A model generated the notes under the pieces. It saw only the letters and a list, made by a program, of their open reading frames with translations, had not been told where the DNA came from and searched no databases. A program made the translations under genes and the position numbers. Shown here piece after piece: positions 10,810 through 64,000 of a stretch of 64,000 nucleotides of DNA; position 1 is the stretch's first letter, and every line of letters begins with the position of its first letter. The DNA is from Candidatus Nomurabacteria bacterium. Lineage in GTDB: Bacteria > Patescibacteriota > Minisyncoccia > Phycocordibacterales > UBA918. Where the stretch lies: assembly GCA_020632095.1 (NCBI GenBank), contig JACKGF010000001.1, positions 70,549-134,548 of the forward strand, read 5' to 3'.

Positions 10810-11253
10810 ATGAGTAAAACTTCTGAGACAAAAGTTTCTTCAGTGTCTCCGGCTGTAATCGGACCTGAAAATAAGCGAAATCTCTACGCCTCGCAACCGG
10901 CTGCCGGCTTCCCCGCTCCTGGCGATGATTTAGTAGAAAAAGCTTTAGACTTGAATGATTTATTGATTGATAACCCTACCGCTACTTTTTTTGTGCGGGT
11001 GTCTGGCGACTCGATGGAAGATGCCAAGATATTTGCTGGTGATATTTTAGTGATTGATCGGTCAGTTGAGCCAAAATCAGGCATGATTGTAGTAGCGGCT
11101 GTTTATGGTGAGCTAGTGGTGAAAATCCTGCAAAAAACCAACTCCGGATTAGCGCTAATCTCAGCCAGCGAAAACTACGAACCAATTTTAATCAATGATG
11201 AAGAAGGCTGCTTTATCTGGGGTGTGGTTGTAGGTAGTGCACGGGTTTTTTAA
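10810..11253 (+). CDS. umuD: UmuD-like S24 peptidase (LexA C-terminal-domain fold without a DNA-binding domain)
   Basis: Ser-Lys dyad context (FFVRVSGDSMED...GDILVIDRS...GELVVKIL) and a candidate Ala-Gly cleavage site (PAAGFP). The N-terminus has no wHTH, so this is not LexA. Confidence 0.75.
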   Translation: MSKTSETKVSSVSPAVIGPENKRNLYASQPAAGFPAPGDDLVEKALDLNDLLIDNPTATFFVRVSGDSMEDAKIFAGDILVIDRSVEPKSGMIVVAAVYGELVVKILQKTNSGLALISASENYEPILINDEEGCFIWGVVVGSARVF

Positions 11254-11399: not shown

Positions 11400-14300
11400 A
11401 TGAGACGATCGACCGTCGGTTTTTGTGTAATGTTATTGGCTGTTTTTGGTGTCACGGCTGTTACGCTCCAACCAGATTTTGTCATTCAAGATTTTACCTT
11501 ACGTTCTTCACCTATTCCAGCTATCCTCTATCAACAACCTCTCCTGCAAGCCTCCAGCAACGTACCTACCCCAACCCCAGCTTCCAATCTGGTCTCGATT
11601 CAGTCTCAAGGAGTTACTCAAGCCGATCTCAACAATCGTATTACCGGTCTACTTCTACATATGCACTGGTTATTGAATGATAGAGGACAATCAGCTACTG
11701 TCTCTACCACTCGCACTAACTCTTCCGAATCAAAACGAATCGACCGTCTCGAACGCCAAATCTTCAGTTTCATGGACGAATCAGACGATGATCGCTCAGA
11801 CTTGTCTGACGATATCACTAACGGTGGCTCTTTCCTCAATCCAACTCTCACTACAGCTACTCTCAATGGCACCACCACCGCCGGAGCATTCATTGTGAAT
11901 GGTCGGCTCGGCGTCGGTACTTCTTCACCAGTCGAGCGACTATCAATCAACGGCGCTGTCTATCTAGCCGACACCACTCCCACCAACTCCGCCTCCCGTC
12001 TATACAACACCGCTGGTGGTCTCTATTGGAATGGTTCCTTAGTTGCTGGTGGAGCAGTTGGTAGCTGGACTGGTAGTGGTGGTAATGTTTATCGAGCGAG
12101 TGGGAATGTGGGGATTGGGACGAGTGCACCTGACAAGTTGTTGCATATAAAATCACAGTCCGGTGTTTATCGGTCCCAGATTAGTATAGATGATTCCGCT
12201 AATAATAGTGGATATGCGCGGATAGATTATAATACTGATGATTCAATAAGCTGGAATGCCGGTGTTTATTCAACAAATAGTAGTCCAGATAGAGGGTTTG
12301 CTGTTTCAAATAATTATTCTGGATGGAAGGATCTGCTTAGTGTGAGCCCAAATGGTAATGTTGGCATCGGCACCACCTCATCCCTTGCCAAACTCTCTGT
12401 TAAAGGCAGTGGAACCGGCACCGGCCGTGCTTTTAGTATTACTGATTCTACCAACGTAGAAAAGTTCACTGTGCTGGATAATGGGAAAGTTGTACTGAGT
12501 GGTCGGCAGACTATATACAACGCCGACGCAACTGGTTTTTTAAACTCACTGTACTTTGGTGACGGAGGAGGAAGTTTGTCTCATACATCAGGTAGTGAAG
12601 GGTACGACAATACAGCTGTAGGTATAGGTGCTCTTTATTTTAATACTATTGGTTCTAGTAATACTGCAAATGGCTTAAATAGTTTGTACAGTAACACTAC
12701 AGGCAGTAATAACTCTGCAAATGGCGTAAATAGTTTATTTTATAATACTACAGGCAACAACAATACGGCCAATGGATTCCGTACATTGGAAGCAAACACT
12801 ATCGGTTATAACAATACCGCCAATGGAGCGTATGCTCTTTTGCTTAATACGACCGGAAGCCAAAATACAGCGAACGGTATAACCTCTCTCTATTCTAATA
12901 CCACAGGTTCTAACAACGTGGCTAATGGTATGGAGTCTCTCTACTGGAATACCGTAGGTTACGACAACACTTCAAATGGCGCATATTCACTTTACTTCAA
13001 CATCACTGGTTATTCCAATACCGCAAATGGAAAGCATGCACTTTACTCTAACACTTCTGGATATTACAACACAGCAAACGGAGTTAATGCCGGTCGTTAT
13101 CTTGCAGACGGCACAACAGCCAACCAAACTTCAAGCAACTCCGTGTTTGAGGGTTATGACACCAGAGCTTTAACTGCTAGTGGAACAAATGAAATCGTCA
13201 TTGGAGCCAGCGCCATTGGAAACGGAAGTAACAGCGCCACTCTGGGTAACGATTCTATAACAAAGACGATATTGAAAGGGAGTGTAGGCATCGGCACCAC
13301 TTCACCCCTCGCCAAGCTCTCTGTTACAGGCAGTGGTACCGGCACCGGCCGCGCTTTTAGTATCACTGATTCTGCTAATGCAGAAAAGTTCACTGTACTG
13401 GATAATGGGAATTTAGGGATTGGGACGTCAGTGCCAGAAGGTAAACTCACAGTGAACGGTTCTACAAGTGATACTCCTGGGTCAAATTCACTCTTAACTC
13501 TGTACGCAGGTACTGGGAAATGGGTACAGCGAATTGATTCATCTGGTAACTTAAATTTTGATTCCAACAACGGTGCTAGTATGTACTCCTGGGTGACGAT
13601 AAATAGAGTTGGCAACGTCGGCATCGGCACCACTTCACCCCTCGCCAAACTCTCTGTTAAAGGCAGTGGTACCGGCACCGGCCGCGCTTTTAGTATTACT
13701 GATTCTACCAACGTAGAAAAGTTCACTGTACTGGATAATGGGAATGTGGGGATTGGTACTTCAATTCCTACTGTTCCTTTAGAAGTAATAGCAAAAAGTC
13801 TTAATAAAGGATTGAGAATAACTCGTGACTCCACCAATAACAGTACATTGGAATTTGCAGAAATCGGTGGCATACAGGCGCGTATTTATGGTATCGGTGC
13901 ATCGTCTGCAGGACAGATGGCTTTCCTTACTGGGTCTGGGGGTGGATCTGAGGCAATGAGAATTACTGATACAGGCAATGTTGGTATAGGTACTTCAAGT
14001 CCTAAGACTGCCCTACAAGTCGGAGTGTCAACAGATAATTACGGAGTTTCAGCCTTCACTAAATTGTATACTTCGGGAGGCGGGATACGTGTCGGTTCAG
14101 CGTCTGGGAGCGATTATGGTTATAGAATCGTGAGGGATCCAGGAAGTATATTTGCTCCGGAGTTAAACGGGGATCTTGTATTCATCGGTGATCAAGCGAA
14201 TTCTTTTGGTAATTATGCGTTTTTAAACCAATCAGGCAGTGTTCTCTTAAGAATCCTTGGTGGTGGCAACGTCGGCATCGGCACCACCTCACCCCTTGCT

Positions 14301-16604
14301 AAGCTCTCTGTTAAAGGCAGTGGTACTGGCGCTGGCCGTGCTTTTAGTATCACCGATTCTGCTAATGTTGAAAAATTCACTGTGTTGGATAATGGGAATG
14401 TTGGGATTGGGGCTTCCGTCCCTGGAGCAAAACTAGATATTATTGATGAGTCTCAGCAAGGGTTGCTAACGGCGTTGCGACTAGGAGGTCAAGTTGCCGA
14501 TGATGGGGGTCGTTCTATTGATTTTAGTACGGCAAGTGCACTGAATACTTTTCTTACTGGCGCTCGAATTTCTGGGGTAAGGCACGGCGGTGCTTGGGGG
14601 TCACTCAGATTTTCTACACTAGGAGCTGACGGTCTCCAAGAGCGAGTCCGGTTTAGTCCAGATGGTAGTGTTGGTATTAGTACGACAACTCCGAATGCAA
14701 GACTTTCGATTGTGGGGTCTGGTGCTTCGGTTGTTACCAAGGCACTTCTTGTTTCGGATTCGAATAATGTGCCTTATGTTGTTGCGCATGATGAAGGGGG
14801 AGTTACTATTGGAAAACAAATGATTGTCACTTCCTTGTATACACTTGATGTTGGTGGTTCAGGCGATCAGTTTATTCGGTTAAAATCAATGGATAATGCT
14901 GGAAACGCTGGTGTTAATTTTAGTGGCGCAGGAGACAGGGGTTCCATTTATGGAACATTCGACTACAATATTAAAATAGAACCTAATGCACAGTATGGTT
15001 ATGCAGATGTGATTATAAATCCCAAAAATGGAAGCGCTACTCGGCTTGGTATACTCGATTCAACCCCTGACTTCGGTATTGAATCAGCCGCCACTTCCTC
15101 AAAAGGGTATTTCGGTATTTCGTCTACAGCCGGTGCTGATGGCGATATTTTCATGATTGATCCGAGTGGGAATATGGGAGTTGGGACGACTAGTCCAGGG
15201 GCGAAGTTGGATGTTGCAGGTAATGTATTGTTAGGACGAGGTGGCTTAATAGATACTCAACGCACTCTTTCAATAACTGGGGCAAAGCAAAGCTCTGGTG
15301 CAGACTACGCTCGTGTCGACTTTAAGAACTACGATCAAAATGGATCGTTAGGTGAATATGTTGGTGCCAGAATTAGTTCAGAAAATGCTGCTGGAGCAGA
15401 ATACGGCGACTTACGCTTTTGGACCCGCTCATCAACAATGCGAACCAATCCAGATATGATACTAAATAGTGCAGGAAACGTCGGCATCGGCACCACTTCA
15501 CCACTTGCCAAACTCTCTATTGCTGGTAATGGAACCGGCACCGGCCGCGCTTTTAGTATTACTGATTCTACCAACGTAGAAAAGTTCACTGTACTGGATA
15601 ATGGGAATGTGGGGATTGGGACAACGACGCCGGGGGCTAAGTTGGCAATTAGTGGCGGTAATATTAGGCTTGATAGTGATAGGAAACTTGAGTGGAATTA
15701 TGGATGGGAATATCTTTATGCAAATACATCTTCGGGAAACATCACTGCTTCTGTGAGAACAGGTTTAATTGTTAATGCGGACAACAACGATAACGACCTT
15801 CCTACGCATGTTGAATTTTCGGTACGATCAGGAAGTGCATTATCGGAGTTGTTTAGAATACAAAAGAACGGTAACGTCGGCATCGGGACCACCTCCCCCA
15901 ACAGCGCCCTCGACGTCATTGGTACTATTCAAGCTTCAAACCTACTCGGTGGGGCGGTCAATCTCACCACTGACGCCAACGGAAACATTATACGCGACCC
16001 ATCTGACGCTCGATTGAAGGAAAACATTCAAGAAATCTCTAATCCTCTCGATAAACTACTTAGTCTTCATGGTGTCTCGTATCAATGGAAAGACAAAGAG
16101 CGCTTTGGTGAACAGACAGAAATCGGATTTATTGCTCAAGAAGTTGACTCAATCCTACCTGAAGTAGTGCGCAAAGGCGGTGAATACTTCTCCCTCAACA
16201 CCCGCAACATTTTAGCGGTGGTAATAGAAGGCTTTAAGGAATTGTACGCCAAAGTAATGAGAAATTCCGATAAGATTGATTTGCTTGAACAGCAAAATGC
16301 ATCTTTAGAGCAAAATAATGTCGAACTAGAAACCCGACTCGAAGCCCTGGAAGCTCAGCTAAATGTTACTCCACCGGCACCGGTAGTGGTAGAAGATGAA
16401 GATGAACCGGAACAAGAAGAAACGAATCAGGATGAAGGGTCTGATAGTGCGAACCAAGAGGAAACAGAAGTTGCTGAAGAAGATGGTCTCGAGCCGATAG
16501 AAATAGTTCAAGATGAAGTGGAAGAAGAAACGCCCGCACTTACTACAGAGGAGCCTGAGGCGGATGAAGCTGAAGTTGTGCCAGAGACTGAAATTTCTGA
16601 ATAG
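11400..16604 (+). CDS. 1734-aa phage tail-fibre-like repeat protein with a C-terminal peptidase-S74 intramolecular chaperone domain, then a coiled coil and an acidic tail
   Basis: The repeated motif NVGIGTTSPLAKLSVKGSGTGTGRAFSITDSTNVEKFTVLDNGNVGIGT occurs at least 6 times. The C-terminal signature DARLKENIQEISNPLDKLLSLHGVSYQWKD...EIGFIAQEVDSILPEVV matches PF13884 / peptidase S74. Confidence 0.75.
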   Translation: MRRSTVGFCVMLLAVFGVTAVTLQPDFVIQDFTLRSSPIPAILYQQPLLQASSNVPTPTPASNLVSIQSQGVTQADLNNRITGLLLHMHWLLNDRGQSATVSTTRTNSSESKRIDRLERQIFSFMDESDDDRSDLSDDITNGGSFLNPTLTTATLNGTTTAGAFIVNGRLGVGTSSPVERLSINGAVYLADTTPTNSASRLYNTAGGLYWNGSLVAGGAVGSWTGSGGNVYRASGNVGIGTSAPDKLLHIKSQSGVYRSQISIDDSANNSGYARIDYNTDDSISWNAGVYSTNSSPDRGFAVSNNYSGWKDLLSVSPNGNVGIGTTSSLAKLSVKGSGTGTGRAFSITDSTNVEKFTVLDNGKVVLSGRQTIYNADATGFLNSLYFGDGGGSLSHTSGSEGYDNTAVGIGALYFNTIGSSNTANGLNSLYSNTTGSNNSANGVNSLFYNTTGNNNTANGFRTLEANTIGYNNTANGAYALLLNTTGSQNTANGITSLYSNTTGSNNVANGMESLYWNTVGYDNTSNGAYSLYFNITGYSNTANGKHALYSNTSGYYNTANGVNAGRYLADGTTANQTSSNSVFEGYDTRALTASGTNEIVIGASAIGNGSNSATLGNDSITKTILKGSVGIGTTSPLAKLSVTGSGTGTGRAFSITDSANAEKFTVLDNGNLGIGTSVPEGKLTVNGSTSDTPGSNSLLTLYAGTGKWVQRIDSSGNLNFDSNNGASMYSWVTINRVGNVGIGTTSPLAKLSVKGSGTGTGRAFSITDSTNVEKFTVLDNGNVGIGTSIPTVPLEVIAKSLNKGLRITRDSTNNSTLEFAEIGGIQARIYGIGASSAGQMAFLTGSGGGSEAMRITDTGNVGIGTSSPKTALQVGVSTDNYGVSAFTKLYTSGGGIRVGSASGSDYGYRIVRDPGSIFAPELNGDLVFIGDQANSFGNYAFLNQSGSVLLRILGGGNVGIGTTSPLAKLSVKGSGTGAGRAFSITDSANVEKFTVLDNGNVGIGASVPGAKLDIIDESQQGLLTALRLGGQVADDGGRSIDFSTASALNTFLTGARISGVRHGGAWGSLRFSTLGADGLQERVRFSPDGSVGISTTTPNARLSIVGSGASVVTKALLVSDSNNVPYVVAHDEGGVTIGKQMIVTSLYTLDVGGSGDQFIRLKSMDNAGNAGVNFSGAGDRGSIYGTFDYNIKIEPNAQYGYADVIINPKNGSATRLGILDSTPDFGIESAATSSKGYFGISSTAGADGDIFMIDPSGNMGVGTTSPGAKLDVAGNVLLGRGGLIDTQRTLSITGAKQSSGADYARVDFKNYDQNGSLGEYVGARISSENAAGAEYGDLRFWTRSSTMRTNPDMILNSAGNVGIGTTSPLAKLSIAGNGTGTGRAFSITDSTNVEKFTVLDNGNVGIGTTTPGAKLAISGGNIRLDSDRKLEWNYGWEYLYANTSSGNITASVRTGLIVNADNNDNDLPTHVEFSVRSGSALSELFRIQKNGNVGIGTTSPNSALDVIGTIQASNLLGGAVNLTTDANGNIIRDPSDARLKENIQEISNPLDKLLSLHGVSYQWKDKERFGEQTEIGFIAQEVDSILPEVVRKGGEYFSLNTRNILAVVIEGFKELYAKVMRNSDKIDLLEQQNASLEQNNVELETRLEALEAQLNVTPPAPVVVEDEDEPEQEETNQDEGSDSANQEETEVAEEDGLEPIEIVQDEVEEETPALTTEEPEADEAEVVPETEISE
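12357..12485 (+). repeat. intragenic near-identical ~130-bp direct repeat, copy 1
   Basis: The sequence aatgttggcatcggcaccacctcatcccttgccaaactctctgttaaaggcagtgg...ctggataatggg is shared at over 90% nucleotide identity with copies 2-5. Confidence 0.8.
13284..13409 (+). repeat. intragenic ~130-bp repeat, copy 2
   Basis: Near-identical to copy 1. GC content is higher than the surrounding gene body. Confidence 0.8.
13614..13755 (+). repeat. intragenic ~130-bp repeat, copy 3
   Basis: Near-identical to copy 1. Confidence 0.8.
14268..14410 (+). repeat. intragenic ~130-bp repeat, copy 4
   Basis: Near-identical to copy 1. Confidence 0.8.
15477..15620 (+). repeat. intragenic ~130-bp repeat, copy 5. 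A partial sixth copy lies at about 15876-15905.
   Basis: Near-identical to copy 1. Confidence 0.8.
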
Positions 16605-20990: not shown

Positions 20991-22247
20991 ATGAAAACCT
21001 GGATTGGGGTGTTGGATTGCAATAATTTCTTTGTATCGTGCGAACGGTTGTTTCGTCCGGACTTACGTAACAAACCAGTGGTGGTACTGTCGAGTAATGA
21101 TGGTTGTGTGGTGGCACGCTCACAAGAGGTAAAGGACATGAATGTCCCTATGGGTGTCCCTTACTTTAAGATAAAAGACACGCTAAAAAAGGCTGATTCT
21201 ACAACCTTTTCTTCACACTTTGCTTTATACCGAGATATTTCTAGAAGAGTGTTTGAGGTGATGCGTGATGAGCTCGAAAACGTTGAACAATACTCGATTG
21301 ACGAGGCTTTTTTCTTATTCAAGGGTTCTGAAAAAGCAGTGTCTGAGCTAGCAAAAAGAGTGAGAGCGGCAGTTGAATTGCAGGTTGGGATACCAGTTTC
21401 AGTCGGGGTGGGTTACTCAAAAACTCAAGCCAAGTATGCCAATTTTTTAGCTAAAAAGAGTAAAGGAGTGTGTGTTTTGAATTCAAGAAAGTGGTTAAAA
21501 ATTGCTCCAGAAGTACCCTTATCAAGGCTTTGGGGAGTGGGCAGGAGACTGGATCTTAACTACAAAAAACATGGTTTGTTGACTGTGGCAGATGTGTTAA
21601 CAGCTGACAATTCACGTCTGGATCAGTTGTTTGGAATAGTAGGAATGCGATTAAAACAAGAGTTGTCTGGCGTAGCAATCTATGGGTTTGAGGGTAGGAT
21701 TGATGTTAAACAAAGCATTACGAGCTCGCGGTCATTTGGAAATACTACCAATGATTTACCAGTTTTGGCTGATGCTTTGGCTTATCATACTCGTCATGCG
21801 TTAGTAGATTTGCGAGCTATGGCAAGATATGTTTCGGTAGTGACAGTGTCAATTGGGACTAGCAGATATGGAGATTTTTTACTAAAAGGGAGGTCTAAGA
21901 AGATATTTTTGGAGAAACCAACTAATGATACTTTGGTTGTTTTAAAAGAGGTAAATAAGGCCTTGGTAGAGTTATTTGAGTCTGGCGTGCCGTACAAAAA
22001 AGCGGGGGTTACTTTGTCGCAGTTTAGTCCAATTGATGCCTATCAAAACAGTTTATTTTCTAATAACAACGAATCAGTAACCCAGTCATTGATGCCTGTT
22101 TTAGATTCGATAAATCTCAAGGCTGGCAGGGAAGTGGTGCTGGTCGGCAGTCGTCTGCAGAGTAATAATTGGCAGTCTTTATCAGACTCAAAATCACCAG
22201 CCTATACGACAAGATGGAAAGATTTGTTTACAGTGAAGGCAAAATAA
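20991..22247 (+). CDS. umuC: Y-family translesion DNA polymerase (UmuC/DinB-like)
   Basis: N-terminal palm motif LDCNNFFVSCE (compare DCDAFYASVE), SIDEAFF, and a little-finger region. It is divergent from the NUDIX gene across a 29-bp spacer. Confidence 0.8.
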   Translation: MKTWIGVLDCNNFFVSCERLFRPDLRNKPVVVLSSNDGCVVARSQEVKDMNVPMGVPYFKIKDTLKKADSTTFSSHFALYRDISRRVFEVMRDELENVEQYSIDEAFFLFKGSEKAVSELAKRVRAAVELQVGIPVSVGVGYSKTQAKYANFLAKKSKGVCVLNSRKWLKIAPEVPLSRLWGVGRRLDLNYKKHGLLTVADVLTADNSRLDQLFGIVGMRLKQELSGVAIYGFEGRIDVKQSITSSRSFGNTTNDLPVLADALAYHTRHALVDLRAMARYVSVVTVSIGTSRYGDFLLKGRSKKIFLEKPTNDTLVVLKEVNKALVELFESGVPYKKAGVTLSQFSPIDAYQNSLFSNNNESVTQSLMPVLDSINLKAGREVVLVGSRLQSNNWQSLSDSKSPAYTTRWKDLFTVKAK

Positions 22248-25417: not shown

Positions 25418-27325
25418 ATGAAAGCGGTGTACGAAAAATGGACACTTTGGCTAGTGATTTTCTTCTTTGTAATAGTTGGAGTCTTTGTGTTTTCTCCACA
25501 GGTTACTAATGCTCTCAAGATCAATGAGTACAAAGACACTCTTAGTGACTCAGGTCCGCTTGAGCAAGCTAACCATACTTTTGACTTTGTTTTAAATACT
25601 GATGTATCACCAGGTGGAATTTTTGAAATTACTCCGCCAGCCGGTTTTACTGTTCTTTCGACTACTACTTTCGCTGAAAGAAACGTTGAACTCTTGGTTA
25701 ATGGGTCGGCTCGAACCGCGGGTACTGTAGCTGCACCAGGAGTAGATCAGGTAGAAATTACGGCTGGTTCACCGGGATTTTTTAGATACACACTGGCTCC
25801 GGATTCCGGGTTAACATCGGGCAGTCGTCTTAAGTTTAAAATCGGAAATCATACCTCAAATTCAGTAATGTCATCAGTCACCTTTAGTACATCTACTGGG
25901 ACCACTACTAATCCAGGAGATGTTGAACCGATAGTAAATTCGGGCATAACAGGCAAGCATGATGTTAAATTGGAAGTTTATGACGGTGGTTTAGTAGCAA
26001 ATGCTAACTTCGTGATTTTTTTAAATGAGAAGGTTAGTGTACCAAATATTGACACTACTGAGGAAATTCCACCTTTTCGCTTTGGCGGTTCGCCGACCAG
26101 TTCGGTGGGAGGAACTACTCTTTTTGTGGAGATCGGTTTAGAAACTGATGAGTTTGCGATCTGTAAATATAGTACAGTTGCCGATATTCCTTTTGGGTCT
26201 ATGTCAGATACTTTTTCTAACACTGGTCTAGTTTTTCATACCACTGTTGTACAGGTAGTTCCAAATTCATTAGCGCAGTTTTATGTTAGATGTATTGACG
26301 ATGAAGGAAATTTCAATATTGACGATTACTTAATTGCGTTTACCGTTAATGATATACCGACTGGAACGTCGAATACTGATGGTAATGTGGACGGAGATGG
26401 CACAGGTACTGGAAATGATGGTACTGGCTCAGGTGGTGGCGGTGGCGGGACGAGCGGTTCTTCTGATGGAGAAGCTCCAACTGAAGGTGGTACTAGTGGC
26501 GGTGGCGGATCAGGAGGTGGAGGAGGAGGTGGTTCAGGTGGTGGCTCTGGATCAACGGCTGGGGGCGGTTTCGAAAGTACAAGTGCACCCTATAGAAGTG
26601 GTGATGGTAGAGTAATTATTTCTGGATATGCCTATCCAAATAGCACAGTCAGTATTTTGGTTGATGGAAATTTCTTTGATACCACGAAAGCAAGTAATTT
26701 AGGTGTATACTCAATTACTTTAGATGAAATTGCTCGCGGAGTTTATACTTTTGGGGTTTATGCCCAAGGTTCTAACAATATAAAATCATCAACTTTTAGT
26801 ACCTCCTTTACTGTAACAGGTGCAAGAACTTCTGCTCTTGGTAATATCAACGTCTCTCCATCAATTCTGGTGGCTCCAAATCCTGTTCAACCAGGAGAGG
26901 TACTTACTGTATCCGGTTTTTCTTTACCAAATGCAAAAGTGACAATTCAAAATGGACGTCTAAAATCCAGTGTAGCAAATAAAGAATATGAGGTTCAGTC
27001 AGACAGCCAAGGTCGCTGGTCTACTACGATTGATACCACAGGCTTTACGGTGGATACATATCAAGTTAGAGCTAAGGCCGAACAGGAGGGTGGAGCAGTG
27101 ACTCATTATTCTGACTATACTTTTTACGGAGTGGGTCAGAAGGCAGATTTACCAATTAATACTGATTTGAATCGAGATGGTAAGGTTAATCTAATCGACT
27201 TCTCAATTATGCTTTTCTGGTGGAACACAAATGGTGGAGATTCAGATCCACCAGCAGATATTAACCGGGACGGGAAGGTGAGTTTGACGGATTTTTCTAT
27301 ACTTCTTTTCAATTGGACTGGGTAG
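25418..27325 (+). CDS. secreted protein with Gly-rich linker, Ig-like domains and a C-terminal dockerin-like double repeat. The ORF track starts at TTG 25391.
   Basis: Signal anchor. Poly-Gly/Ser linker, then C-terminal DLNRDGKVNLIDFSIMLF...DINRDGKVSLTDFSILLFNWTG (two DxNxDGxVNxxD repeats of the dockerin type). Confidence 0.6.
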   Translation: MKAVYEKWTLWLVIFFFVIVGVFVFSPQVTNALKINEYKDTLSDSGPLEQANHTFDFVLNTDVSPGGIFEITPPAGFTVLSTTTFAERNVELLVNGSARTAGTVAAPGVDQVEITAGSPGFFRYTLAPDSGLTSGSRLKFKIGNHTSNSVMSSVTFSTSTGTTTNPGDVEPIVNSGITGKHDVKLEVYDGGLVANANFVIFLNEKVSVPNIDTTEEIPPFRFGGSPTSSVGGTTLFVEIGLETDEFAICKYSTVADIPFGSMSDTFSNTGLVFHTTVVQVVPNSLAQFYVRCIDDEGNFNIDDYLIAFTVNDIPTGTSNTDGNVDGDGTGTGNDGTGSGGGGGGTSGSSDGEAPTEGGTSGGGGSGGGGGGGSGGGSGSTAGGGFESTSAPYRSGDGRVIISGYAYPNSTVSILVDGNFFDTTKASNLGVYSITLDEIARGVYTFGVYAQGSNNIKSSTFSTSFTVTGARTSALGNINVSPSILVAPNPVQPGEVLTVSGFSLPNAKVTIQNGRLKSSVANKEYEVQSDSQGRWSTTIDTTGFTVDTYQVRAKAEQEGGAVTHYSDYTFYGVGQKADLPINTDLNRDGKVNLIDFSIMLFWWNTNGGDSDPPADINRDGKVSLTDFSILLFNWTG

Positions 27326-27500
27326 GGTATACAGCTTGGCTTATGCGATTCGGGTTTACGTTCCAGCAGAATTAAGTAAGCAAAGGGAGGGAGTGAGTTT
27401 GACGGATTTTTCTATACTTCTTTTCAATTGGACTGGGTAGGGTATACAGCTTGGCTTATGCGTTCGGGTTTACGTTCCAGCGAATTAAGTAAGCAAAGGA
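27281..27500 (+). repeat. tandem duplication (2 copies of ~113 bp) spanning the stop codon of 25418..27325
   Basis: The unit gagtttgacggatttttctatacttcttttcaattggactgggtagggtatacagcttggcttatgcg(a)ttcgggtttacgttccagc(a)gaattaagtaagcaaagg occurs at 27281-27388 and again at 27395-27500. Confidence 0.8.
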
Positions 27501-27627
27501 ACGTAGTGACTATTGCGAACTTATGTCAGAATTTGCTCTGCCCTTGGGCAAATTCTGACTGCTCTAGGCAAAGCAAATCTCGGCAGCTTGCTACATGCTT
27601 TTTTCTCCTTTGGAAGTCTAAAAATCT
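27426..27627 (+). repeat. ~200-bp repeat, near-identical to 63615..63815
   Basis: Both copies read aattggactgggtagggtatacagcttggcttatgcgttcgggtttacgttccagcgaattaagtaagcaaaggaacgtagtgactattgcgaac...ctcctttggaagtctaaaaatc. They differ by a single T indel. Confidence 0.85.
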
Positions 27628-27793
27628 GCTACAAGTTATGCTACTCGTATTTTTAAATTTCACTACGTCCTGAAAAGCTTGGCTTATAAGTTCACTTTGC
27701 ATAGTAAAAATTAGTCGTAGTTATGCTACTCGTATTTTTAAACAAAGCAAATCTCAAACTAAATTCACAATAGTCACTACGTTCCTTTGTTCA
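27490..27793. mobile_element. MITE-like non-coding element (~304 bp) bounded by ~26-bp terminal inverted repeats
   Basis: Left end caaaggaacgtagtgactattgcgaa (27494-27519). Right end ttcacaatagtcactacgttcctttg (27764-27789) is its reverse complement at 25/26 positions. The interior has no ORF, a 10-bp hairpin, and an internal direct repeat ttatgctactcgtatttttaaa. Confidence 0.4.
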
Positions 27794-28270
27794 TTTATCA
27801 AATTGGACTGGGTAGGGTATACAGTTTGGCTTATGCGTTGGAGTTTACGTTCCTTGGCTTATACGTTCCTTTGTTCGGGTTTACGCTTATGCGTTCGGGT
27901 TTACGTTCCAGCGAATTAAGTAAGCAAAGGAACGTAGTGGTCAGAATTTGCTCAAGGCAGAGCAAATTCTGACATACAAAATTATAGTCATTACATTCCT
28001 TAATTTTTGCAACTATTGCGAACTTGTATCAGAATTTGTTGCTGAGAAATAATGCCTGAAGAGATTGTGTTTACGTTGTAAAAACTCATCTAAAATTAGT
28101 ACTGTTAACTATACTAATTTTTAACCAGTAATTTAGAGTTGGTTTGTTTTTGTGTGAGATAGAGGATTTTGCGATTTAGTCTAGGTAAACAAGAATAATG
28201 AGATTGAGTAATTTTTGTATACAAGTAGTCGCTTGCGTTTGGTTTACGTTCTTGTGATTTGCTTAGATGG
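27794..28270. repeat. degenerate, rearranged copies of the same intergenic repeat family
   Basis: Repeated motifs gcgttcgggtttacgttcc, gcgttggagtttacgttcc and gcgtttggtttacgttctt; hairpin gtcagaatttgctc/gagcaaattctgac at 27936-27975; partial TIR at 28009-28024. Confidence 0.6.
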
Positions 28271-28813: not shown

Positions 28814-30355
28814 ATGTTGCACCTTTTGAAAAAATCTACGCACCTGATAGCTACAATATTTTTTGTTGTTATATTTGTATTTCTACCACGTACTTATGTA
28901 GAAGCGGCTGATTTACTTCTGTCTCCAGGCACTGGTTCTTACTCAGCCGGTCAAACTTTTACAGCGACCGTTAGAGTGGTCCCTTCAGGCGATAGTGTCA
29001 ACGCCGTTGAAGCGGCATTAACTTTCGACCCGTCGGTTTTGTCAGTGGTTAGTGTTAGTAAAGATGGTTCGGTTTTTTCTCTTTGGACAACAGAGCCAGC
29101 TTTTTCAAATTCAAAAGGCACAATTGAGTTTGGTGGAGGAAGTCCTACTCCTTTCACTAATACTTCAAACATTTTAAATGTTACCTTTAGAACAGTTAAA
29201 GAAGGAGCGGGAGCGGTATCTTTTTCAAAAGGCTCAGTTCTGGCAGCTGATGGTAAAGGAACTGATGTCTATAAAAATTCCACTGGTGCTACCTATACTG
29301 TTGCTGCCGCCACTACCCCATCTCCAACTCCAACTCCATCTCCAACTCCAACTCCTAAGCCTGAAGAAACTACTGATTCAGGGGATGGAGGGGAAGCAAT
29401 TATTTTTGGTGACCCACCGCGCCCACCAGAAATTGGCTCTCAAACTTTTCTTGAACCTGAGGTTTGGTACAACATAACTAAAGGCATCTTCACTTGGACA
29501 CTACCATTTGATGTGAGTGAAGTGGCCGTTGAGATTTCAGATAATCCAGAAAATGTACCTCAAGACAATAAAGAAGCAATTAAAGTTCCTCCTGTCGAAG
29601 AATTTGCAATTTCACCTGAGGTGATTAAGGACGGTGTGCAGTACGTTAGTATTAATTTCAAAAACCAGGTTGGATGGGGAGCGGTAGTAAACCGTAAGCT
29701 TCAAATTGACACGACTGCTCCAGAACCGTTTGCAATTAATGTTAGAGCTGGTACAACTCAAAATTCATTCCCACTACTTAATTTCGAGGCTCGTGACGTA
29801 ACTTCAGGAATTCAGTATTACGATATGACTGTAGCTGATAAGGAGCCACTTCGAATTACTCCCGACGAAGCTCGTCTTGGATACATGTTGAAGGAACTTG
29901 AGGATGGTACCTATACAATAAAAGTGATTGCTACCGACATGGCCGGTAATACTCGAGAAAGTAGTGTCGCAGTCTTGATCACAGCCGGTTGGGTAAAGCC
30001 TGTTGAGGTGGTTGATGAAGGTTCTTTCTGGGACTTCCTGACAGCACTCAATTTATTTATTTTCTTCTTGCTTGTTGTGATTGTTCTGCAGGTAGTCTAC
30101 TTCTGGTACGAACACAAAGCTTTAAAGGAAAAGGAAGAAAAGTTACGAAGAGAGACACGTGAGATTCAGGACCAGATGGAGAAAATATTTTCAGCTTTGC
30201 GTGATGAAATTTACGACCAAATTAACACCATCACTAAACGAAAAAGATTATCTGCCAAGGAAAAGGAGGCTGTTGAAGGATTGACTCAGGCCCTAGAAGT
30301 GTCAGAAACCTTGATAGAGAAGGAAATCAATGATGTGAAGACAATTCTTAAGTAA
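28814..30355 (+). CDS. surface protein with signal/TM, TP-repeat linker, a TM helix and a C-terminal cytoplasmic coiled coil; hypothetical
   Basis: N-terminal hydrophobic anchor, TPSPTPTPSPTPTPKP linker, the TM helix LTALNLFIFFLLVVIVLQVVYFWY, then a K/E-rich coiled coil. Confidence 0.5.
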   Translation: MLHLLKKSTHLIATIFFVVIFVFLPRTYVEAADLLLSPGTGSYSAGQTFTATVRVVPSGDSVNAVEAALTFDPSVLSVVSVSKDGSVFSLWTTEPAFSNSKGTIEFGGGSPTPFTNTSNILNVTFRTVKEGAGAVSFSKGSVLAADGKGTDVYKNSTGATYTVAAATTPSPTPTPSPTPTPKPEETTDSGDGGEAIIFGDPPRPPEIGSQTFLEPEVWYNITKGIFTWTLPFDVSEVAVEISDNPENVPQDNKEAIKVPPVEEFAISPEVIKDGVQYVSINFKNQVGWGAVVNRKLQIDTTAPEPFAINVRAGTTQNSFPLLNFEARDVTSGIQYYDMTVADKEPLRITPDEARLGYMLKELEDGTYTIKVIATDMAGNTRESSVAVLITAGWVKPVEVVDEGSFWDFLTALNLFIFFLLVVIVLQVVYFWYEHKALKEKEEKLRRETREIQDQMEKIFSALRDEIYDQINTITKRKRLSAKEKEAVEGLTQALEVSETLIEKEINDVKTILK

Positions 30356-30445
30356 GCAAACGAGCGTAGCGACTATTGCGAACTTAGTTCTCAATTTGCC
30401 CCTTTCTTAGGGCAAATTGCTAGAACGTAAACCCGAACGCAAACG
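30353..30445 (-). repeat. inverted-orientation copy of the structured repeat unit, overlapping the stop codon of 28814..30355
   Basis: Conserved arm gcaaacgagcgtagcgactattgcgaacttag, then hairpin caatttgccc/gggcaaattg enclosed by gttct/agaac, then ctagaacgtaaacccgaacgcaaacg. This is the reverse complement of the unit seen at 63521-63614. Confidence 0.75.
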
Positions 30446-54138: not shown

Positions 54139-55728
54139 ATGTATCCTATGAATTTAAAAAAGTGGCGTGATACACTAATAGCTATGAGGAAAGTTTTGAA
54201 TTTGTTCTTGGTGCCAGTGATATGTCTTGCTCTGGTGTTATTATCAATGCCAGTTTTTACTGTATCGGCTGAGGATAGTACTGCTCCAGAAATCAGTAAC
54301 GTTCAGTTGATTGATGTATCGGACACTAGTGTAACTGTAACCTGGGAAACGGATGAAGATGCTGATTCTTTGGTTAACTATGGATTGCAACCGGATTACG
54401 GAATTGTACGTATTCCAGTAGCTGATCGCACCTCCCATTCAATTACTCTTAGTGACCTTGATCCGGGCAGGGTTTACTACTTTAGAGTGGTTTCGGCTGA
54501 TGAAAGTGGTAATCAGGGTATTTCGGCGGACTATCGAGTACAAACTTCTGGTACGCCACAAACGGGTGAGGGAGAAGGTACTGGACAGGCTGCCGCTGAA
54601 GGGGCTGGTAAAGGACCTCAGGATGGTATTGGTGATGGAGGTAGTTCAAATAATAATAGTGATTTAGCTACCCAAGAAATTATTGAGAAGATAAATCAAA
54701 TTATTAATCCAAAACAGTTGCAAGAAATTCTTAATGAAACAGTCAAGGCAATTGAAGGGATAACAGAAGACCTGACTATCGTTGGTCCGCCAACAGTTAT
54801 CCCAGAAACCACCACAGCATTAATTAAATGGAATACAGACCGTGAAGCTTCGTCAGAAGTCCTTTTCTCTCCAACTAAAAGTTTCGACGGGACAAATTTT
54901 GAATTTTCACAACAATCAACTGGTGGAGATGTGACCGAGCATGAGATTAATGTTATTGGACTAGATGCTTTCACAGAATATAGTTTTAAGGTTATTTCAA
55001 CCGATGGTTATGGAATTAGGGGGGAGAGTAAGGTTTATAAATTTAAGACCAAAGCAACCGCACCAGGGATTCGTAATTTGCGAGTCCTTAAAGTAGAAGA
55101 AAACGCCGCTACTTTAGCTTGGGATACAAATGTACCGGCTAAAGCCTTGGTTGAATACCAGGATCAGACTACTGGGGCTCAGAACTCAGTTGGTCGACCA
55201 ACTCTGTCCACTTCTCACCAAATGCGCTTGGCTGATTTGACTTTGGGTACGCGGTACGTGGCTTTTGTGACAGCTGAAAACTCTGGCGGAGACCGAGTAA
55301 AAAGTCAGCCAATTCAGTTTATTACAGTGCGAGATATTGCCGCTCCGATTATCACTAACGTTACCAATGAGTCAACTCTTTTCCCTGGTAGTGAGTCAAG
55401 AATTCAGACTATTATTGAATGGGATACTGATGAACCAGCACTTTGTTTGATGACTTATCAAGAAGGTGTGGCGGGAGCTTCTGAGTCCTATACTATTGAA
55501 AAAGAGGTAATCTCATATATTGAAAAGCACGTGGAAGTGGTGGTAGATTTTGCACCAGCGACGGTTTATCAGTTTTATTTGACTTGTGAGGATGAGGCCG
55601 GTAATAGTATCAAGTCTGATAATTTTGTGTTGTTTACGCCGATTCAGGAGAAGAATATTATTGACTTGATATTGGAGAACTTCCAGTCAACCTTCGGTTG
55701 GGTTAAGAATATCAGCGGAGGAGGTTAG
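54139..55728 (+). CDS. membrane-anchored protein with four fibronectin type III-like domains
   Basis: Starts 5 nt after the giant gene stop. N-terminal TM, then repeated FN3 signatures (APEISNVQLIDVSDTSVTVTWETDEDADSLVNYG...YYFRVVSADESGN). Confidence 0.6.
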   Translation: MYPMNLKKWRDTLIAMRKVLNLFLVPVICLALVLLSMPVFTVSAEDSTAPEISNVQLIDVSDTSVTVTWETDEDADSLVNYGLQPDYGIVRIPVADRTSHSITLSDLDPGRVYYFRVVSADESGNQGISADYRVQTSGTPQTGEGEGTGQAAAEGAGKGPQDGIGDGGSSNNNSDLATQEIIEKINQIINPKQLQEILNETVKAIEGITEDLTIVGPPTVIPETTTALIKWNTDREASSEVLFSPTKSFDGTNFEFSQQSTGGDVTEHEINVIGLDAFTEYSFKVISTDGYGIRGESKVYKFKTKATAPGIRNLRVLKVEENAATLAWDTNVPAKALVEYQDQTTGAQNSVGRPTLSTSHQMRLADLTLGTRYVAFVTAENSGGDRVKSQPIQFITVRDIAAPIITNVTNESTLFPGSESRIQTIIEWDTDEPALCLMTYQEGVAGASESYTIEKEVISYIEKHVEVVVDFAPATVYQFYLTCEDEAGNSIKSDNFVLFTPIQEKNIIDLILENFQSTFGWVKNISGGG

Positions 55729-56076
55729 GTATAGGGGTTATATACAATTTTGTATCGCCATGTTCCAGCGATTTGGCCTTGGAATGAGCCAAATCGGGAA
55801 CTAAATTCGAAATAATCGCTCCCGCTCATTTTCTCATTTATTCGGTTGGGTTAAGAATATCAGCGGAGGAGGTTAGGTATAGGGGTTATATACAATTTTG
55901 TATCGCCATGTTCCAGCGATTTGGCCTTGGAATGAGCCAAATCGGGAACTAAATTCGAAATAATCGCTCCCGCTCATTTTCTCATTTATTCGGTTGGGTT
56001 AAGAATATCAGCGGAGGAGGTTAGGTATAGGGGTTATATACAATTTTGTATCGCCATGTTCCAGCGATTTGGCCTT
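55691..56076 (+). repeat. tandem array (about 2.6 copies of 148 bp), each copy carrying the last 36 nt plus stop of gene 54139..55728 and a structured hairpin
   Basis: Unit: ttcggttgggttaagaatatcagcggaggaggttag + gtataggggttatatacaattttgtatcgccatgttccag + hairpin cgatttggc/gccaaatcg + ggaactaaattcgaaataatcgctcccgctcattttctcattta. Copies start at 55691, 55841 and 55989. Confidence 0.85.
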
Positions 56077-56078
56077 GG

Positions 56079-56326
56079 AAGGGGAATAATATGAGTAAAA
56101 TATTTTATAGTATAGGATTTTTGACTGCGTTCGGGTTTACGTTCTAGTAATTTGCCCTAGGAAGGGGAATAATATGAGTAAAATATTTTATAGTATAGGA
56201 TTTTTGACTGCGTTCGGGTTTACGTTCTAGTAATTTGCCCTAGGAAGGGGAATAATATGAGTAAAATATTTTATAGTATAGGATTTTTGACTGCGTTCGG
56301 GTTTACGTTCTAGTAATTTGCCCTAG
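56079..56326 (+). repeat. perfect 3x tandem repeat of an 83-bp unit, each containing an SD-like GGAAGGGG and an 18-codon mini-ORF
   Basis: Unit: gaaggggaataat + ATG AGT AAA ATA TTT TAT AGT ATA GGA TTT TTG ACT GCG TTC GGG TTT ACG TTC TAG + taatttgccctag. The mini-ORFs lie at 56091-56147, 56174-56230 and 56257-56313 and encode MSKIFYSIGFLTAFGFTF. Confidence 0.85.
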
Positions 56327-56520
56327 GAAGGGGGCAAATTAAGAACTAAATTCACAATAGTCGCTACGCTCGTTTGTTCATTTAATCTTCGGTTGGGTTA
56401 AGAATATCAGCGGAGGAGGTTAGGTGCAGTGCTGATGTCCGGCGATCTGCACTTGGAGGGAGTGGGATGTGGAGTAGTTGGTAGATGTGGATTCAAACAT
56501 AAGGTTTTTTAGACATAAGA
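56327..56520 (+). repeat. further repeat-family copy plus a partial third copy of the upstream gene tail
   Basis: Conserved arm aagaactaaattcacaatagtcgctacgctcgtttgttcatttaatc, then cttcggttgggttaagaatatcagcggaggaggttagg (56386-56423), then hairpin gcagtgctgatgtccggcgatctgcac. Confidence 0.7.
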
Positions 56521-56535
56521 TGCAATAATAGTTAA

Positions 56536-57858: not shown

Positions 57859-58140
57859 TGTCTGGGTATAATTTTATAGTGTATAGCGATGAAGTTTGTT
57901 TAGTGTGGGTGGTATTATAAATATAATGATGTGTAGTCTGTCAGACTTCCAACGTCCAGCAATTTCGTCTAGGAAGGTTTTTGCTGTAATTATTGGTGTA
58001 TATCAGGGAATTTAGTTTTGTTGGGGTGGTATTATAAATATAAATGCAAGGCGTTGGGGACGTCCAGGAATTCGCCCTAGGACAGGGGCGAATTCGGACA
58101 TAAATTCAAAATAATCGCTTCCGCTCATTTTTTCATTCAA
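57859..58140 (+). repeat. intergenic copy of the structured repeat family between the ABC ATPase and permease genes
   Basis: Direct repeats gtgggtggtattataaatataa (57905) and ggggtggtattataaatataa (58023). Hairpin gaattcgccc/gggcgaattc enclosed by gtcc/ggac (58062-58099). Conserved arm acataaattcaaaataatcgcttccgctcattttttcatt. Confidence 0.75.
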
Positions 58141-59355
58141 ATGCGAATACAAGATTTAGCACAATTATCAACTCGAATGTTTAAGACCAATCCGTTGCGT
58201 ACTTGGTTGACGATTTTAGGTATGGGGGTTGGTACGGGAGCGGTGGTGGTTTTGGTGGGGCTTGGTTTTGGCTTGCAGCAGATTATTTTGGAGCAGATTG
58301 TGTTTGGAGAAACTTTGCTTTCGCTCGGGGTTTCTTCTACCGGAGCGCAAGGACTAAGTCTTACTCCTGAGACGGTTGTAGAGTTTGAGAAAAATCCGGC
58401 TGTTCTTGACGCTGCACCATTAGCGCGTTTTCCAGCTCTTATAACTTACAAAGGCCTAACTGGTAATGTATTTGTGCAAGGCGTTGAGCCACCATACCTG
58501 CGCTACGCTGGTGTAACAGCGACTGAGGGAACTGTGTTTGAAGAAGCTGATGCCGGTGATACCAACTCAATTATGATTTCTCCAGCTACGCTAAAGCTGT
58601 TTGGTATTGCTGATGAAGATGTAAAAGCTTTTATTGGCCAAAAAGTTACACTAAAACTACTAGTTCCAGCTGATGATGGGACCGACAATGTAAACGAAAT
58701 TGTTATTGACAAAGAATATATCGTGCGCGGTGTTACTAAAGAGCAGGGAGTATTGAATGTCATGATGATGTTGCCAGAACTAAGAAATTACGTCGGAATA
58801 GAAGAATATGAAAGGATTCAAGTAAGAGTAGATTCAAATCAAAATCTGCCAATTGTGGAAGCAAAGTTAATTGAAGATGGTTATCGGGTAACCGCTTTGT
58901 CAAAGACAGTAGAACAAGCTTCAAAAATTTTCCAGGGAATTCAAGTGGTTTTGGCTACTTTTGGTGGAATTGCTTTGATTGTATCGGCGATTGGTATGTT
59001 TAATACCATGACAGTGACCTTGCTCGAACGCACCAAAGAGATTGGAATCATGCGTACCATTGGGGCGTCTCCCAACGACGTAAAGTACTTGTTTGTGTCT
59101 GAATCAGTCGTGGTGGGCTTTCTGGGGGGTGTGACCGGTATTTTAATGGGTGTTGTGCTCGGATTGTCTGTAAACTTATTACTCAACATTGTGGCCGGTC
59201 AATTTGGAGGGCAGTCTGTGAAGTTATTTTCGTTTCCGTTTAATTTTCTGGCTTTCATCACAATCTTCTCGGCCGCGGTTGGCTATTTGACTGGTATTTT
59301 CCCAGCCAGACGCGCCTCTACACTTAATCCTCTCGATGCGATTAGGTACGAGTAG
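58141..59355 (+). CDS. ABC transporter permease, FtsX/MacB family (N-terminal TM, large extracytoplasmic domain, C-terminal 3-TM FtsX domain)
   Basis: N-terminal helix LRTWLTILGMGVGTGAVVVLVGLGFG. The C-terminal FtsX signature ERTKEIGIMRTIGASPNDV is followed by three TM segments. Confidence 0.8.
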   Translation: MRIQDLAQLSTRMFKTNPLRTWLTILGMGVGTGAVVVLVGLGFGLQQIILEQIVFGETLLSLGVSSTGAQGLSLTPETVVEFEKNPAVLDAAPLARFPALITYKGLTGNVFVQGVEPPYLRYAGVTATEGTVFEEADAGDTNSIMISPATLKLFGIADEDVKAFIGQKVTLKLLVPADDGTDNVNEIVIDKEYIVRGVTKEQGVLNVMMMLPELRNYVGIEEYERIQVRVDSNQNLPIVEAKLIEDGYRVTALSKTVEQASKIFQGIQVVLATFGGIALIVSAIGMFNTMTVTLLERTKEIGIMRTIGASPNDVKYLFVSESVVVGFLGGVTGILMGVVLGLSVNLLLNIVAGQFGGQSVKLFSFPFNFLAFITIFSAAVGYLTGIFPARRASTLNPLDAIRYE

Positions 59356-62399: not shown

Positions 62400-62401
62400 C
62401 T

Positions 62402-63505: not shown

Positions 63506-64000
63506 GGTATACAGCTTGTTGTTTGCGTTGGAGTTTACGTTCCAGCGATTTGCTCTAGGCAAAGCAAATCGGGAACTAAATTCACAATAGTCACTACGTT
63601 CCTTTGTTCATTTAAATTGGACTGGGTAGGGTATACAGCTTGGCTTATGCGTTCGGGTTTACGTTCCAGCGAATTAAGTAAGCAAAGGAACGTAGTGACT
63701 ATTGCGAACTTATGTCAGAATTTGCTCTGCCCTTGGGCAAATTCTGACTGCTCTAGGCAAAGCAAATCTCGGCAGCTTGCTACATGCTTTTTCTCCTTTG
63801 GAAGTCTAAAAATCATAAGCAACTGCATAAGTAAAAATTAGTCTTAGCTATGCTACTCGTATTTTTACTCAAACCAAATTCAGCATAGTCGCTTCCGCTC
63901 TTTGCTTCATTTAAATTGGACTGGGTAGGGTATACAGCTTGTTGTTTGCGTTGGAGTTTACGTTCCAGCGATTTGCTCTAGGCAAAGCAAATCGGGAACT
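63486..64000 (+). repeat. array of repeat-family units beginning at the last 20 nt of gene 62402..63505 and running to the window edge
   Basis: Units begin with aattggactgggtagggtatacagcttg at 63490, 63615 and 63915. The hairpin cgatttgc/gcaaatcg is enclosed by gttcc/ggaac (63539-63576 and again 63948-63985). Conserved arm ggaactaaattcacaatagtcactacgttcctttgttcattta. Confidence 0.85.
63615..63815 (+). repeat. ~200-bp repeat near-identical to 27426..27627
   Basis: See 27426..27627. The same long variant of the unit, with the TIR-type arm inserted between gttccag and the hairpin. Confidence 0.85.

Follow-up and report, generated by a model that had tools for sequence, protein, structure and literature searches.

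How do the last codons of a gene, stop codon included, come to lie repeatedly behind that same gene, each time beside a non-coding repeat unit? The question is raised by a stretch of 64,000 nucleotides (nt) from Candidatus Nomurabacteria (JACKGF010000001.1, positions 70,549–134,548; hereafter the window), in which the ends of surface-protein genes recur together with such units. In an initial annotation, these repeated ends (tails) were taken for the duplicated attachment (att) core of repeated site-specific insertions or for cassette boundaries, with slippage between units as the alternative, and the units were thought to supply the stop codons of the genes. We found that the repeat units are copies, fragments, and mosaics of one non-coding element of approximately 82–105 nt, which we named E, and comparison with relatives indicated that the repeated tails are native gene sequence and not part of E. 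The explanation that we consider rather probable is that insertion of E produced a long target duplication of variable length, and that slippage and unequal recombination then multiplied the tails.

Repeat units and element E

The tail repeats of the initial annotation were present in the window far beyond expectation: the 15-nt sequence AATTGGACTGGGTAG of the dockerin genes occurred in six exact copies (27311, 27426, 27801, 63491, 63615, and 63914; 0.01 expected), and the 36-nt tail TTCGGTTGGGTTAAGAATATCAGCGGAGGAGGTTAG of an FN3-domain gene in four (55693, 55841, 55989, and 56388; 0 expected). The tail lengths given there, 15–38 nt, held for the 15-nt core but not throughout, as the duplicated tail at 27281–27500 measured 48 nt (27278–27325 = 27393–27440) and the exact FN3 repeat 39 nt (55692–55730 = 56387–56425). 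The approximately 2.6 copies placed at 55691–56076 were recovered by Tandem Repeats Finder, with which tandem arrays were called, at 55693–56080 with a period of 148 nt and 100% identity. The units themselves, 110–300 nt in length, contained no reading frames.

A covariance model of E was built from aligned copies and run with cmsearch on the window and on 48 metagenome loci, which had been retrieved with a 23-nt motif from the most conserved part of E (approximately 0.5 loci expected by chance). This gave 12 copies in the window, all within the repeat regions (nine on the minus strand and three on the plus strand), and 81 matches across the 48 loci. E consists of two adjacent hairpins, H1 and H2, followed by a short motif, CAACGCC or AACGCA. 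In the alignment of metagenome copies, H1 reads UUGAAU-[GA]-GCAAA-(variable apex)-UAUUGC-[GA]-AUUUA, and H2 has a highly variable, co-varying stem with a CU bulge and a loop of the CCUAG type. Among 34 aligned copies, 96.7% of the cells were able to pair, compared with 28–47% in controls with slid partners, and compensatory changes were seen in 14 of the 24 pairs; positions 6/37 and 10/33 of E also co-varied. G·U outnumbered A·C by 73 to 5 in 54 distinct copies, which indicated that one specific strand of E folds, the strand reading TGAATGAGCAAACGAGCG... A conserved sequence of 37 nt was kept across many metagenome lineages. The 5' end of E was sharp and its 3' side variable. A single E had no terminal inverted repeats (TIRs), since its two ends differ (the H1 arm at one, H2 with the AACGC motif at the other), and the long units with inverted arms of 55–58 nt proved to be two E copies in opposite orientations.

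Rfam 15, used for RNA families, gave no match at or above the gathering score in the window, only chance-level matches at 27250–28100 with E-values up to 10, and only tRNA in four E-bearing loci. The 18-nt core GCGTTSGRGTTTACGTTC gave 74 single matches from unrelated phyla in a genome-contig collection, compared with approximately 69 expected by chance, so that the E family could not be recovered from that collection by this motif, and a scan of viral contigs gave no match. A literature search for the core sequence and for the element in the candidate phyla radiation or Patescibacteria found no description.

E lay in sense and antisense orientation to flanking genes almost equally often (29 vs 24), and its orientation relative to GC skew (29 vs 30) showed no replication bias. 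Where the upstream gene was co-oriented, its stop codon coincided with E positions 7–9 in nine distinct loci (12 with redundant ones), whereas an equally available stop at positions 3–5 was used once. A structural constraint on one strand combined with free orientation would be explained more readily by an intermediate in mobility than by a cis-acting role in mRNA.

Two further features of E were noted. In some copies, a further small hairpin, GCTGGAAAATAC...TATTTTCTGTA, lies between H1 and H2 as a third module (L082:1411–1545, L096:2773–2859, L108:5888–5990, and L122:1066–1140; L numbers are our handles for the sequences compared). Boxes similar to -10 promoter elements (TGGTATTATAAAT, GGTATAC, and GATATAAT) were seen in the 3' extensions of E, in the window at 57900–58050, 27326–27340, and 55729–55745 and in the L125 and L083 spacers; they may replace a promoter that the insertion had cut off from its gene.

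Native gene ends and tandem arrays

Domains in the window were assigned with Pfam, and the features on which the following comparison draws are listed below, beginning with the two dockerin loci.

25418–27325, plus strand: gene for a dockerin-domain surface protein of 635 amino acids (Pfam Dockerin_1); its last 48 nt are tail copy 1
27278–27392, plus strand: unit 1 of a tandem duplication of approximately 115 nt, 98% identical to unit 2 and absent from L077 and L140
27393–27440, plus strand: orphan copy 2 of the 48-nt dockerin tail, TAG included
27484–27562, plus strand: E, sense, left arm of a long "TIR-like" unit (cmsearch, 74.4 bits)
27734–27799, minus strand: truncated E, its 5' end abutting tail copy 3 (cmsearch, 46.1 bits)
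27801–27815, plus strand: orphan copy 3 of the dockerin tail, 15–17 nt
27816–27884, plus strand: what remains of a short unit, scrambled into pieces of ACGTTCC, GCTTAT, and GGGTTTACG that form a mosaic
27937–28013, minus strand: diverged E (cmsearch, 43 bits)
62360–63505, plus strand: second dockerin-domain gene (Pfam), whose last 15 nt are the same tail as that of 25418–27325
63491–64000, plus strand: array of tail, short unit, tail, long unit, tail, and short unit, with tails at 63491, 63615, and 63914
63537–63616 (minus strand, in the short unit), 63673–63751 (plus strand) and 63859–63915 (minus strand, both in the long unit), and 63962–63999 (minus strand, in the final short unit): E copies of that array, the last running towards the window end

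The FN3, ABC-permease, and cohesin loci held the following features.

55693–55728, plus strand: native 36-nt tail of the FN3-domain gene 54139–55728 (FGWVKNISGGG*)
55729–56080, plus strand: rest of the 148-nt tandem array, with E on the minus strand at 55760–55842 and 55908–55990 and orphan tails at 55841–55876 and 55989–56024
56067–56333, plus strand: 83-nt tandem array, 3.2 copies, 98% identity
56305–56386, minus strand: complete E, its 5' end 1 nt from tail copy 4 (cmsearch, 101.1 bits)
56388–56423, plus strand: orphan FN3 tail copy 4, followed directly by the ancestral FN3-ABC spacer 56426–56535
58059–58141, minus strand: E between the ABC ATPase and MacB-like permease genes (cmsearch, 84.6 bits)
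30347–30428, plus strand: E on the stop codon of the cohesin-domain gene 28814–30355 (cmsearch, 99.1 bits)

The empty sites in relatives for which the initial annotation had called were found as E-free orthologous spacers in L130, L132–L137, L141, and L142. The FN3-ABC spacer was 56–69 nt in L130 and L132–L137 and 807 nt in the window, and the ABC-permease spacer was 2–29 nt in E-free relatives and approximately 300 nt in the window; in these relatives, too, the genes follow one another as giant gene, FN3, ABC, and permease. The last ~50 nt of 56426–56535 resembled, by eye rather than by alignment, the spacer of L130 (86% identity), which is empty of E at this site. The C-terminus FGWVKNI[SG]G(G...) was kept in all 12 FN3 homologues examined out of many hundreds of matches. 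Similarly, the dockerin orthologues in L141 and L142 (75% and 70% identity; L142 from the 994,774-nt record CP060229.1) end in ...LLFNWTG*, and their E-free spacers to the Hsp20 gene measured 51 and 96 nt, compared with 997 nt in the window. The cohesin protein ended identically, in ...TILK*, in the window and in L141 and L142. The same C-termini and short spacers in E-free relatives indicated that the arrays of the window are lineage-specific insertions, and the spacer lengths, 51–96 nt without E against 807–997 nt with it, bore out the earlier view that insertion takes place at gene 3' ends.

The view that the elements supply the stop codons did not survive this comparison, as the NWTG*, GGG*, and ILK* ends are identical or nearly so in E-free relatives. 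What remained of it concerned 28814–30355 only, where the TAA triplet (30353–30355), placed within a repeat unit by the initial annotation, does correspond to E positions 7–9 at 30347–30428 and thus lies inside the first helix of E. Since the cohesin protein ends alike in the E-free L141 and L142, the E at 30347 sits on a native stop codon and leaves the protein unchanged. Two synonymous differences in the cohesin tail between the window and L141/L142 improve its pairing with the H1 3' arm.

Several observations concern the ends and neighborhoods of these genes. The last NusG codons (GTT AAG AAG GTT TAA) form the 5' strand of the first helix of an E in L111 (3976–4058) and also in L127; the H1 3' arm in these two is changed to match the NusG codons, and the E-free L103 has synonymous codon variants. 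The stop codon is TAG in the dockerin genes that E follows (window and L104) and TAA in two E-free orthologues (window 27311–27325 vs L141:4821–4835 and L142:4891–4905), a comparison of two cases per side that is not interpretable. A protein on record under Candidatus Nomurabacteria (P0121, 635 amino acids) is 100% identical to the product of 25418–27325, whereas an exact-protein look-up with either start codon found no FN3 protein identical to that of the window. The FN3 homologues P0001–P0025 differ at the C-terminus only in the last residues beyond the conserved ...FGWVKNI(S/G), with the variants ...NISG, ...NIGG, ...NIGGG, ...NIGGGG, ...NIGGGGG, and ...NIGA, a pattern of sequence that hints at repeated remodelling of this gene end. 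In six lineages (the window, L086, L093, L102, L107, and L113), the ABC-permease spacer holds an E directly next to the permease start codon; the H2 stem of this E is completely different in each but fully compensated, which points to long-term structural selection or repeated replacement. A cohesin-domain protein (28814–30355) is encoded next to two dockerin-domain proteins (25418–27325 and 62360–63505) in this Patescibacteria genome of ~1 Mb, which suggests that they form a surface assembly of the cohesin-dockerin type. The cohesin protein has a Pro-Thr linker encoded by (CCAACT)n at 29318–29355. One reading frame of 7799 amino acids with matches to DUF2341, pentaxin, and LamG-like domains fills 30734–54133, and this giant frame is kept in relatives at 6529–8128 amino acids, always upstream of the FN3-ABC-permease genes.

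The arrays also bore marks of secondary events. The two copies of the ~115-nt duplication, 27278–27386 and 27393–27499, were 98% identical. Unit 1 (27278–27392) combines the 48 nt of the native gene tail with the 3' extension of a minus-strand E remnant and approximately the first 12 nt of a plus-strand E arm. The plus-strand E at 27484–27562 forms a 55-nt inverted repeat with 27743–27797. Assemblies of the same population (L075/L077, L076, L078–L081, L139, and L140) were located through identical proteins (Hsp20, ABC, and dockerin). The ~115-nt duplication (27278–27506) was missing in L077 and L140, where the gene runs straight into the copy-2 version, and its junction was a GGGA/GTGA microhomology between the gene and the plus-strand E arm; slippage, the alternative offered in the initial annotation, accounts for this copy at 27281–27500. 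Region A occurred with three different unit contents, those of the window, of L077 (= L140), and of L080. The differences include a 16-nt deletion and, at the position of the mosaic 27816–27884, an intact short unit plus tail in L077 and L140. At the FN3 locus, each 83-nt unit (56067–56333) consists of an E 3' extension and half of hairpin H2. The last 148-nt unit (array ending at 56080) is truncated at the H2 apex, and the 83-nt units and the 148-to-83 junction likewise break there. L075 has copy numbers of 1.6 and 2.2, compared with 2.6 and 3.2 in the window, although collapse at k = 141 is possible. Tandem partial duplications of E without tails occurred in L096 and L098. We read the differences among the same-population assemblies as strain polymorphism.

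Flanking repeats and the origin of the tails

To look for direct repeats flanking E, we compared the 30 nt that precede the E 5' end with the 250 nt that follow and counted exact repeats of 9 nt or more, with mismatched pairs as controls. Such repeats flanked 14 of 63 distinct E copies, compared with 3.4% in the controls, and their lengths were 10, 11, 12, 12, 13, 15–17, 19, 21, and 36–39 nt. The cases that could be assigned to a target were as follows.

39 nt: FN3 tail (window)
15–17 nt: dockerin tail (window)
13 nt: dockerin tail in an unrelated contig, single E (L104)
12 nt: NusG tail, single E (L111/L127)
12 nt: dnaK head, single E (L109)
11 nt exact, probably longer but diverged: head of another gene (L125)
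19 nt: read as part of a tRNA gene, single E (L097)
21 nt: beside a probable 5S rRNA gene, single E (L082)

Their geometry was constant: a repeat, the E 5' end within 0–4 nt, E, a variable 3' extension of 0–144 nt, and the repeat again. In the E-associated tail cases, the repeat stopped 0–2 nt past the stop codon; this and the sense-oriented copies suggest that E inserts directly after stop codons. One filled/empty pair was available: L125 carries a second E that L083 and L084 lack. In approximately eight distinct cases among 641 reading frames, a tail of 12 nt or more recurred downstream, compared with approximately 0.08 expected.

The following course of events would explain these observations. 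E would invade the very short intergenic spacers of this genome in either orientation and tend to land right behind stop codons, and its insertion would generate a long target duplication of variable length (10–39 nt or more), so that the flanking repeats would arise during insertion itself. At a gene 3' end, the copy attached to the gene would keep frame and stop codon, and an orphan tail would be left beyond E. Hairpin-rich arrays would subsequently expand, shrink, and scramble by microhomology-mediated slippage and unequal recombination between adjacent units, multiplying tail-plus-unit modules such as those of ~115 nt at 27278–27506, 148 nt (2.6 copies), 83 nt (3.2 copies), and 124/299 nt at 63491–64000. 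The orphan tails would be functionless, passive scars.

A number of points weigh against this explanation. Several of the 14 repeat-flanked E copies lie in tandem arrays, where slippage alone gives flanking repeats, and plain tandem duplications of gene tails exist without E (L092 and the rplL tail of L082). Locus A lacks a clean tail copy next to the ancestral spacer. In L131 (80% identity), a minus-strand E stands at the same offset behind the FN3 stop with no second tail; together with the empty L130, this would require deletion between tail repeats or repeated gain at the same spot. The same-population assemblies compared are short-read contigs, which may collapse repeats. Classical DDE transposases make duplications of fixed length. 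The scanned reading frames of the window included no transposase, integrase, or reverse transcriptase, and a Pfam scan of 124 non-redundant E neighbors showed none that recurred.

The most serious rival, a possible though clearly less probable one, is that E inserted without target duplication and that all tails stem from later tandem duplications that began inside the gene, driven by replication slippage or template switching at hairpins and followed by partial deletions. The copy at 27278–27506 did arise in just this way, the 148-nt and 83-nt arrays show 98–100% identity, junctions fall at hairpin apices and microhomologies, 27816–27884 is a scrambled mosaic, and a gene tail is duplicated in tandem elsewhere without E (L092, 42 nt). 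However, each solitary E between repeats (L109, L097, and L104, and L125 relative to the empty L083/L084) would then need a duplication plus the precise loss of one E. At the FN3 locus, tail copy 4 adjoins the ancestral spacer directly, and the E before it belongs to another subfamily than that of the first units; in independent cases, the upstream repeat lies within 0–4 nt of the E 5' end. A separate and doubtful reading is that the insertion point is chosen by base pairing of the H1 3' arm with the last codons and stop of the target; E would then be a new kind of mobile element and integrate as a folded single strand, DNA or RNA, with the help of an enzyme making wide, variable staggered cuts. 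It would account for the stop codon at E positions 7–9 in nine loci, for NusG and cohesin tails serving as the H1 5' strand, and for the 6/37 and 10/33 co-variation.

The site-specific explanation, with integrase-duplicated att cores or integron-like cassette boundaries and units entering serially, would suit the repeated order of tail, unit, and tail, the 15-nt core common to two paralogous dockerin genes with its 13-nt version in L104, and a folded single strand recalling integron attC sites. We consider it very improbable. An unchanged element is flanked by repeats that differ wholly in sequence and length with the target, namely, unrelated repeats of 10–39 nt from FN3, dockerin, and NusG tails, the dnaK head, a tRNA, and a flank of a probable 5S rRNA gene; E stands in both orientations beside housekeeping genes such as nusG, dnaK, and V-type ATPase genes; neither the scanned window frames nor, as a recurrent family, the E neighbors yielded a tyrosine or serine recombinase; and the units of 110–300 nt have no reading frames. 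No tRNA or tmRNA usable as an att site was found in the window. Less credible still is the retention of orphan tails by selection, for example as donors for C-terminus remodelling or as part of an RNA or DNA structure with the element. Both tail copies of L104 carry the variant ACA where the window has ACT, and the terminal glycine run of FN3 varies in length among homologues, which is in its favor, but the copies match the native end exactly and so offer no diversity, they vary in length from 12 to 48 nt, gene heads and a tRNA fragment are duplicated likewise, and assemblies of one population differ in unit number, which we take as gain and loss among strains. The least credible reading is that the assembler created or miscounted the tandem copies. 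Short-read contigs of the same population do break or vary in copy number exactly in the arrays. The tail-unit-tail order, however, is present in at least three independent assemblies (L075, L077, and L140), so that the layout is not an artefact of a single assembly even though copy numbers differ; two indels and a distinct junction distinguish the ~115-nt copies, which speaks against a simple assembler duplication, and a contig of up to 997,259 nt, as would befit a nearly closed source genome, is on record with proteins identical to those of the window, although exact-protein look-ups did not return it.

The neighbors of E were ordinary core genes (nusG, dnaK, V-type ATPase, and tRNA synthetase genes), and an all-against-all comparison of 320 neighboring reading frames gave synteny groups only and no recurrent protein family. 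Tail duplications without E included the rplL end in L082 (minus strand; 15–23 nt plus an inverted copy), a 42-nt tandem in L092 (1184–1267), and a repeat of at least 60 nt with a spacing of 1003 nt in L124 (6470–7560). Elsewhere in the window, genes for a UmuD-like S24 peptidase (10810–11253) and a UmuC-like Y-family polymerase (20991–22247) lie 10 kb apart in what is a very small genome, and 11400–16604 encodes a 1734-amino-acid protein with a Peptidase_S74 (endosialidase chaperone) domain and five internal repeats of ~160 nt, which looks like a tail fibre.

Related systems and meaning for Patescibacteria

By analogy, E would appear to act most like REP/BIME/REPIN elements (general descriptions in PMC3116915, PMC3337134, and PMC3184786) and miniature inverted-repeat transposable elements (MITEs), without the defining features of either. 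Like the former, E copies are short, non-coding, extragenic hairpin repeats that occur in many copies and both orientations, form mosaics behind genes and inverted doublets that act as larger hairpins (here with 55–58-nt arms), and show stem "flavours" within a genome. REP, however, is an imperfect, species-specific palindrome of 20–40 nt with a 5' head of the GTAG type, whereas E is ~82 nt long with two unlike hairpins and a conserved loop, is conserved in sequence across lineages, sits on stop codons, and has long flanking direct repeats. REPs are mobilised by a RAYT transposase, and no Y1_Tnp (RAYT) match was found among the scanned window frames or the families listed for the 124 E neighbors. 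MITEs (Correia/NEMIS, RUP, and the Rickettsia palindromic elements) share with E a small size, non-autonomy, insertion at gene boundaries, flanking target duplications, and the ability to overlap reading-frame ends. They differ in that a single E has no TIRs, those of the long units being two inverted E copies, that its duplication is long and variable (10–39 nt or more) rather than a fixed 2–10 base pairs, that only its 5' end is sharp, and that its structural constraint lies on one strand only.

Integrative elements at the 3' ends of genes and tRNA genes, including the CIME/ICE arrays, and casposons carry a duplicated segment that restores the gene end and separates tandem units. E resembles them in gene 3'-end insertion, in a gene end restored by the duplicated segment, and in its tandem arrays, but they have an integrase and carry an att block for one target (a fixed 14–15 base pairs in casposons), whereas the repeat of E changes with the target. 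Strand-specific hairpins, a sharp element end beside the target, and the apparent co-variation, with NusG and cohesin tails pairing with the H1 3' arm, recall IS200/IS605 and PATE elements. Those elements make no target duplication and have similar end hairpins, whereas E has flanking repeats and an H1 unlike its H2. IS200/IS605 elements also show a replication-biased orientation and encode a Y1 transposase or TnpB; E was unbiased, and TnpB, like Y1, was absent from the scanned window frames and E neighbors. Long, variable target duplications are also known from IS1634 and IS1549, with direct repeats of 8–514 base pairs and no known mechanism (PMC2266710). IS1634 comes from a Mycoplasma, another reduced genome, but these are autonomous elements of 1.5–2 kb with a DDE transposase and short inverted ends, and no such transposase or ends were found near any E.

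Two further candidates were rejected. No R''/R' core boxes (RYYYAAC...GTTRRRY) of integron attC sites were seen by inspection, made without a pattern scan, and E occurs in mixed orientation, with no recurrent integrase. The earlier interpretation as cassette boundaries was not supported either, given the housekeeping neighbors, both orientations, and no integrase nearby. For a diversity-generating retroelement, the tail copies were 100% identical without adenine-specific mismatches, and the window contained no reverse transcriptase.

This analysis removes the att-core, cassette, and element-supplied-stop readings of the tails. E appears to be a previously undescribed, non-autonomous, structured intergenic repeat, and the tails its scars. 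Patescibacteria genomes measure ~1 Mb, leave a few tens of bases between genes, and are regarded as poor in repeats. Short-read contigs of the same population end or begin inside E arrays in L075, L076, L078–L081, L139, and L140, so that the E family breaks Patescibacteria metagenome contigs, and the orphan gene ends that E arrays leave can mislead gene callers and comparative analyses. If the insertion point were chosen by base pairing, E would represent programmable targeting of stop codons in Patescibacteria. More generally, a structured, strand-specific repeat family that spans many lineages, sits on stop codons, and is flanked by long, variable duplications points to a possible new mechanism of mobility.

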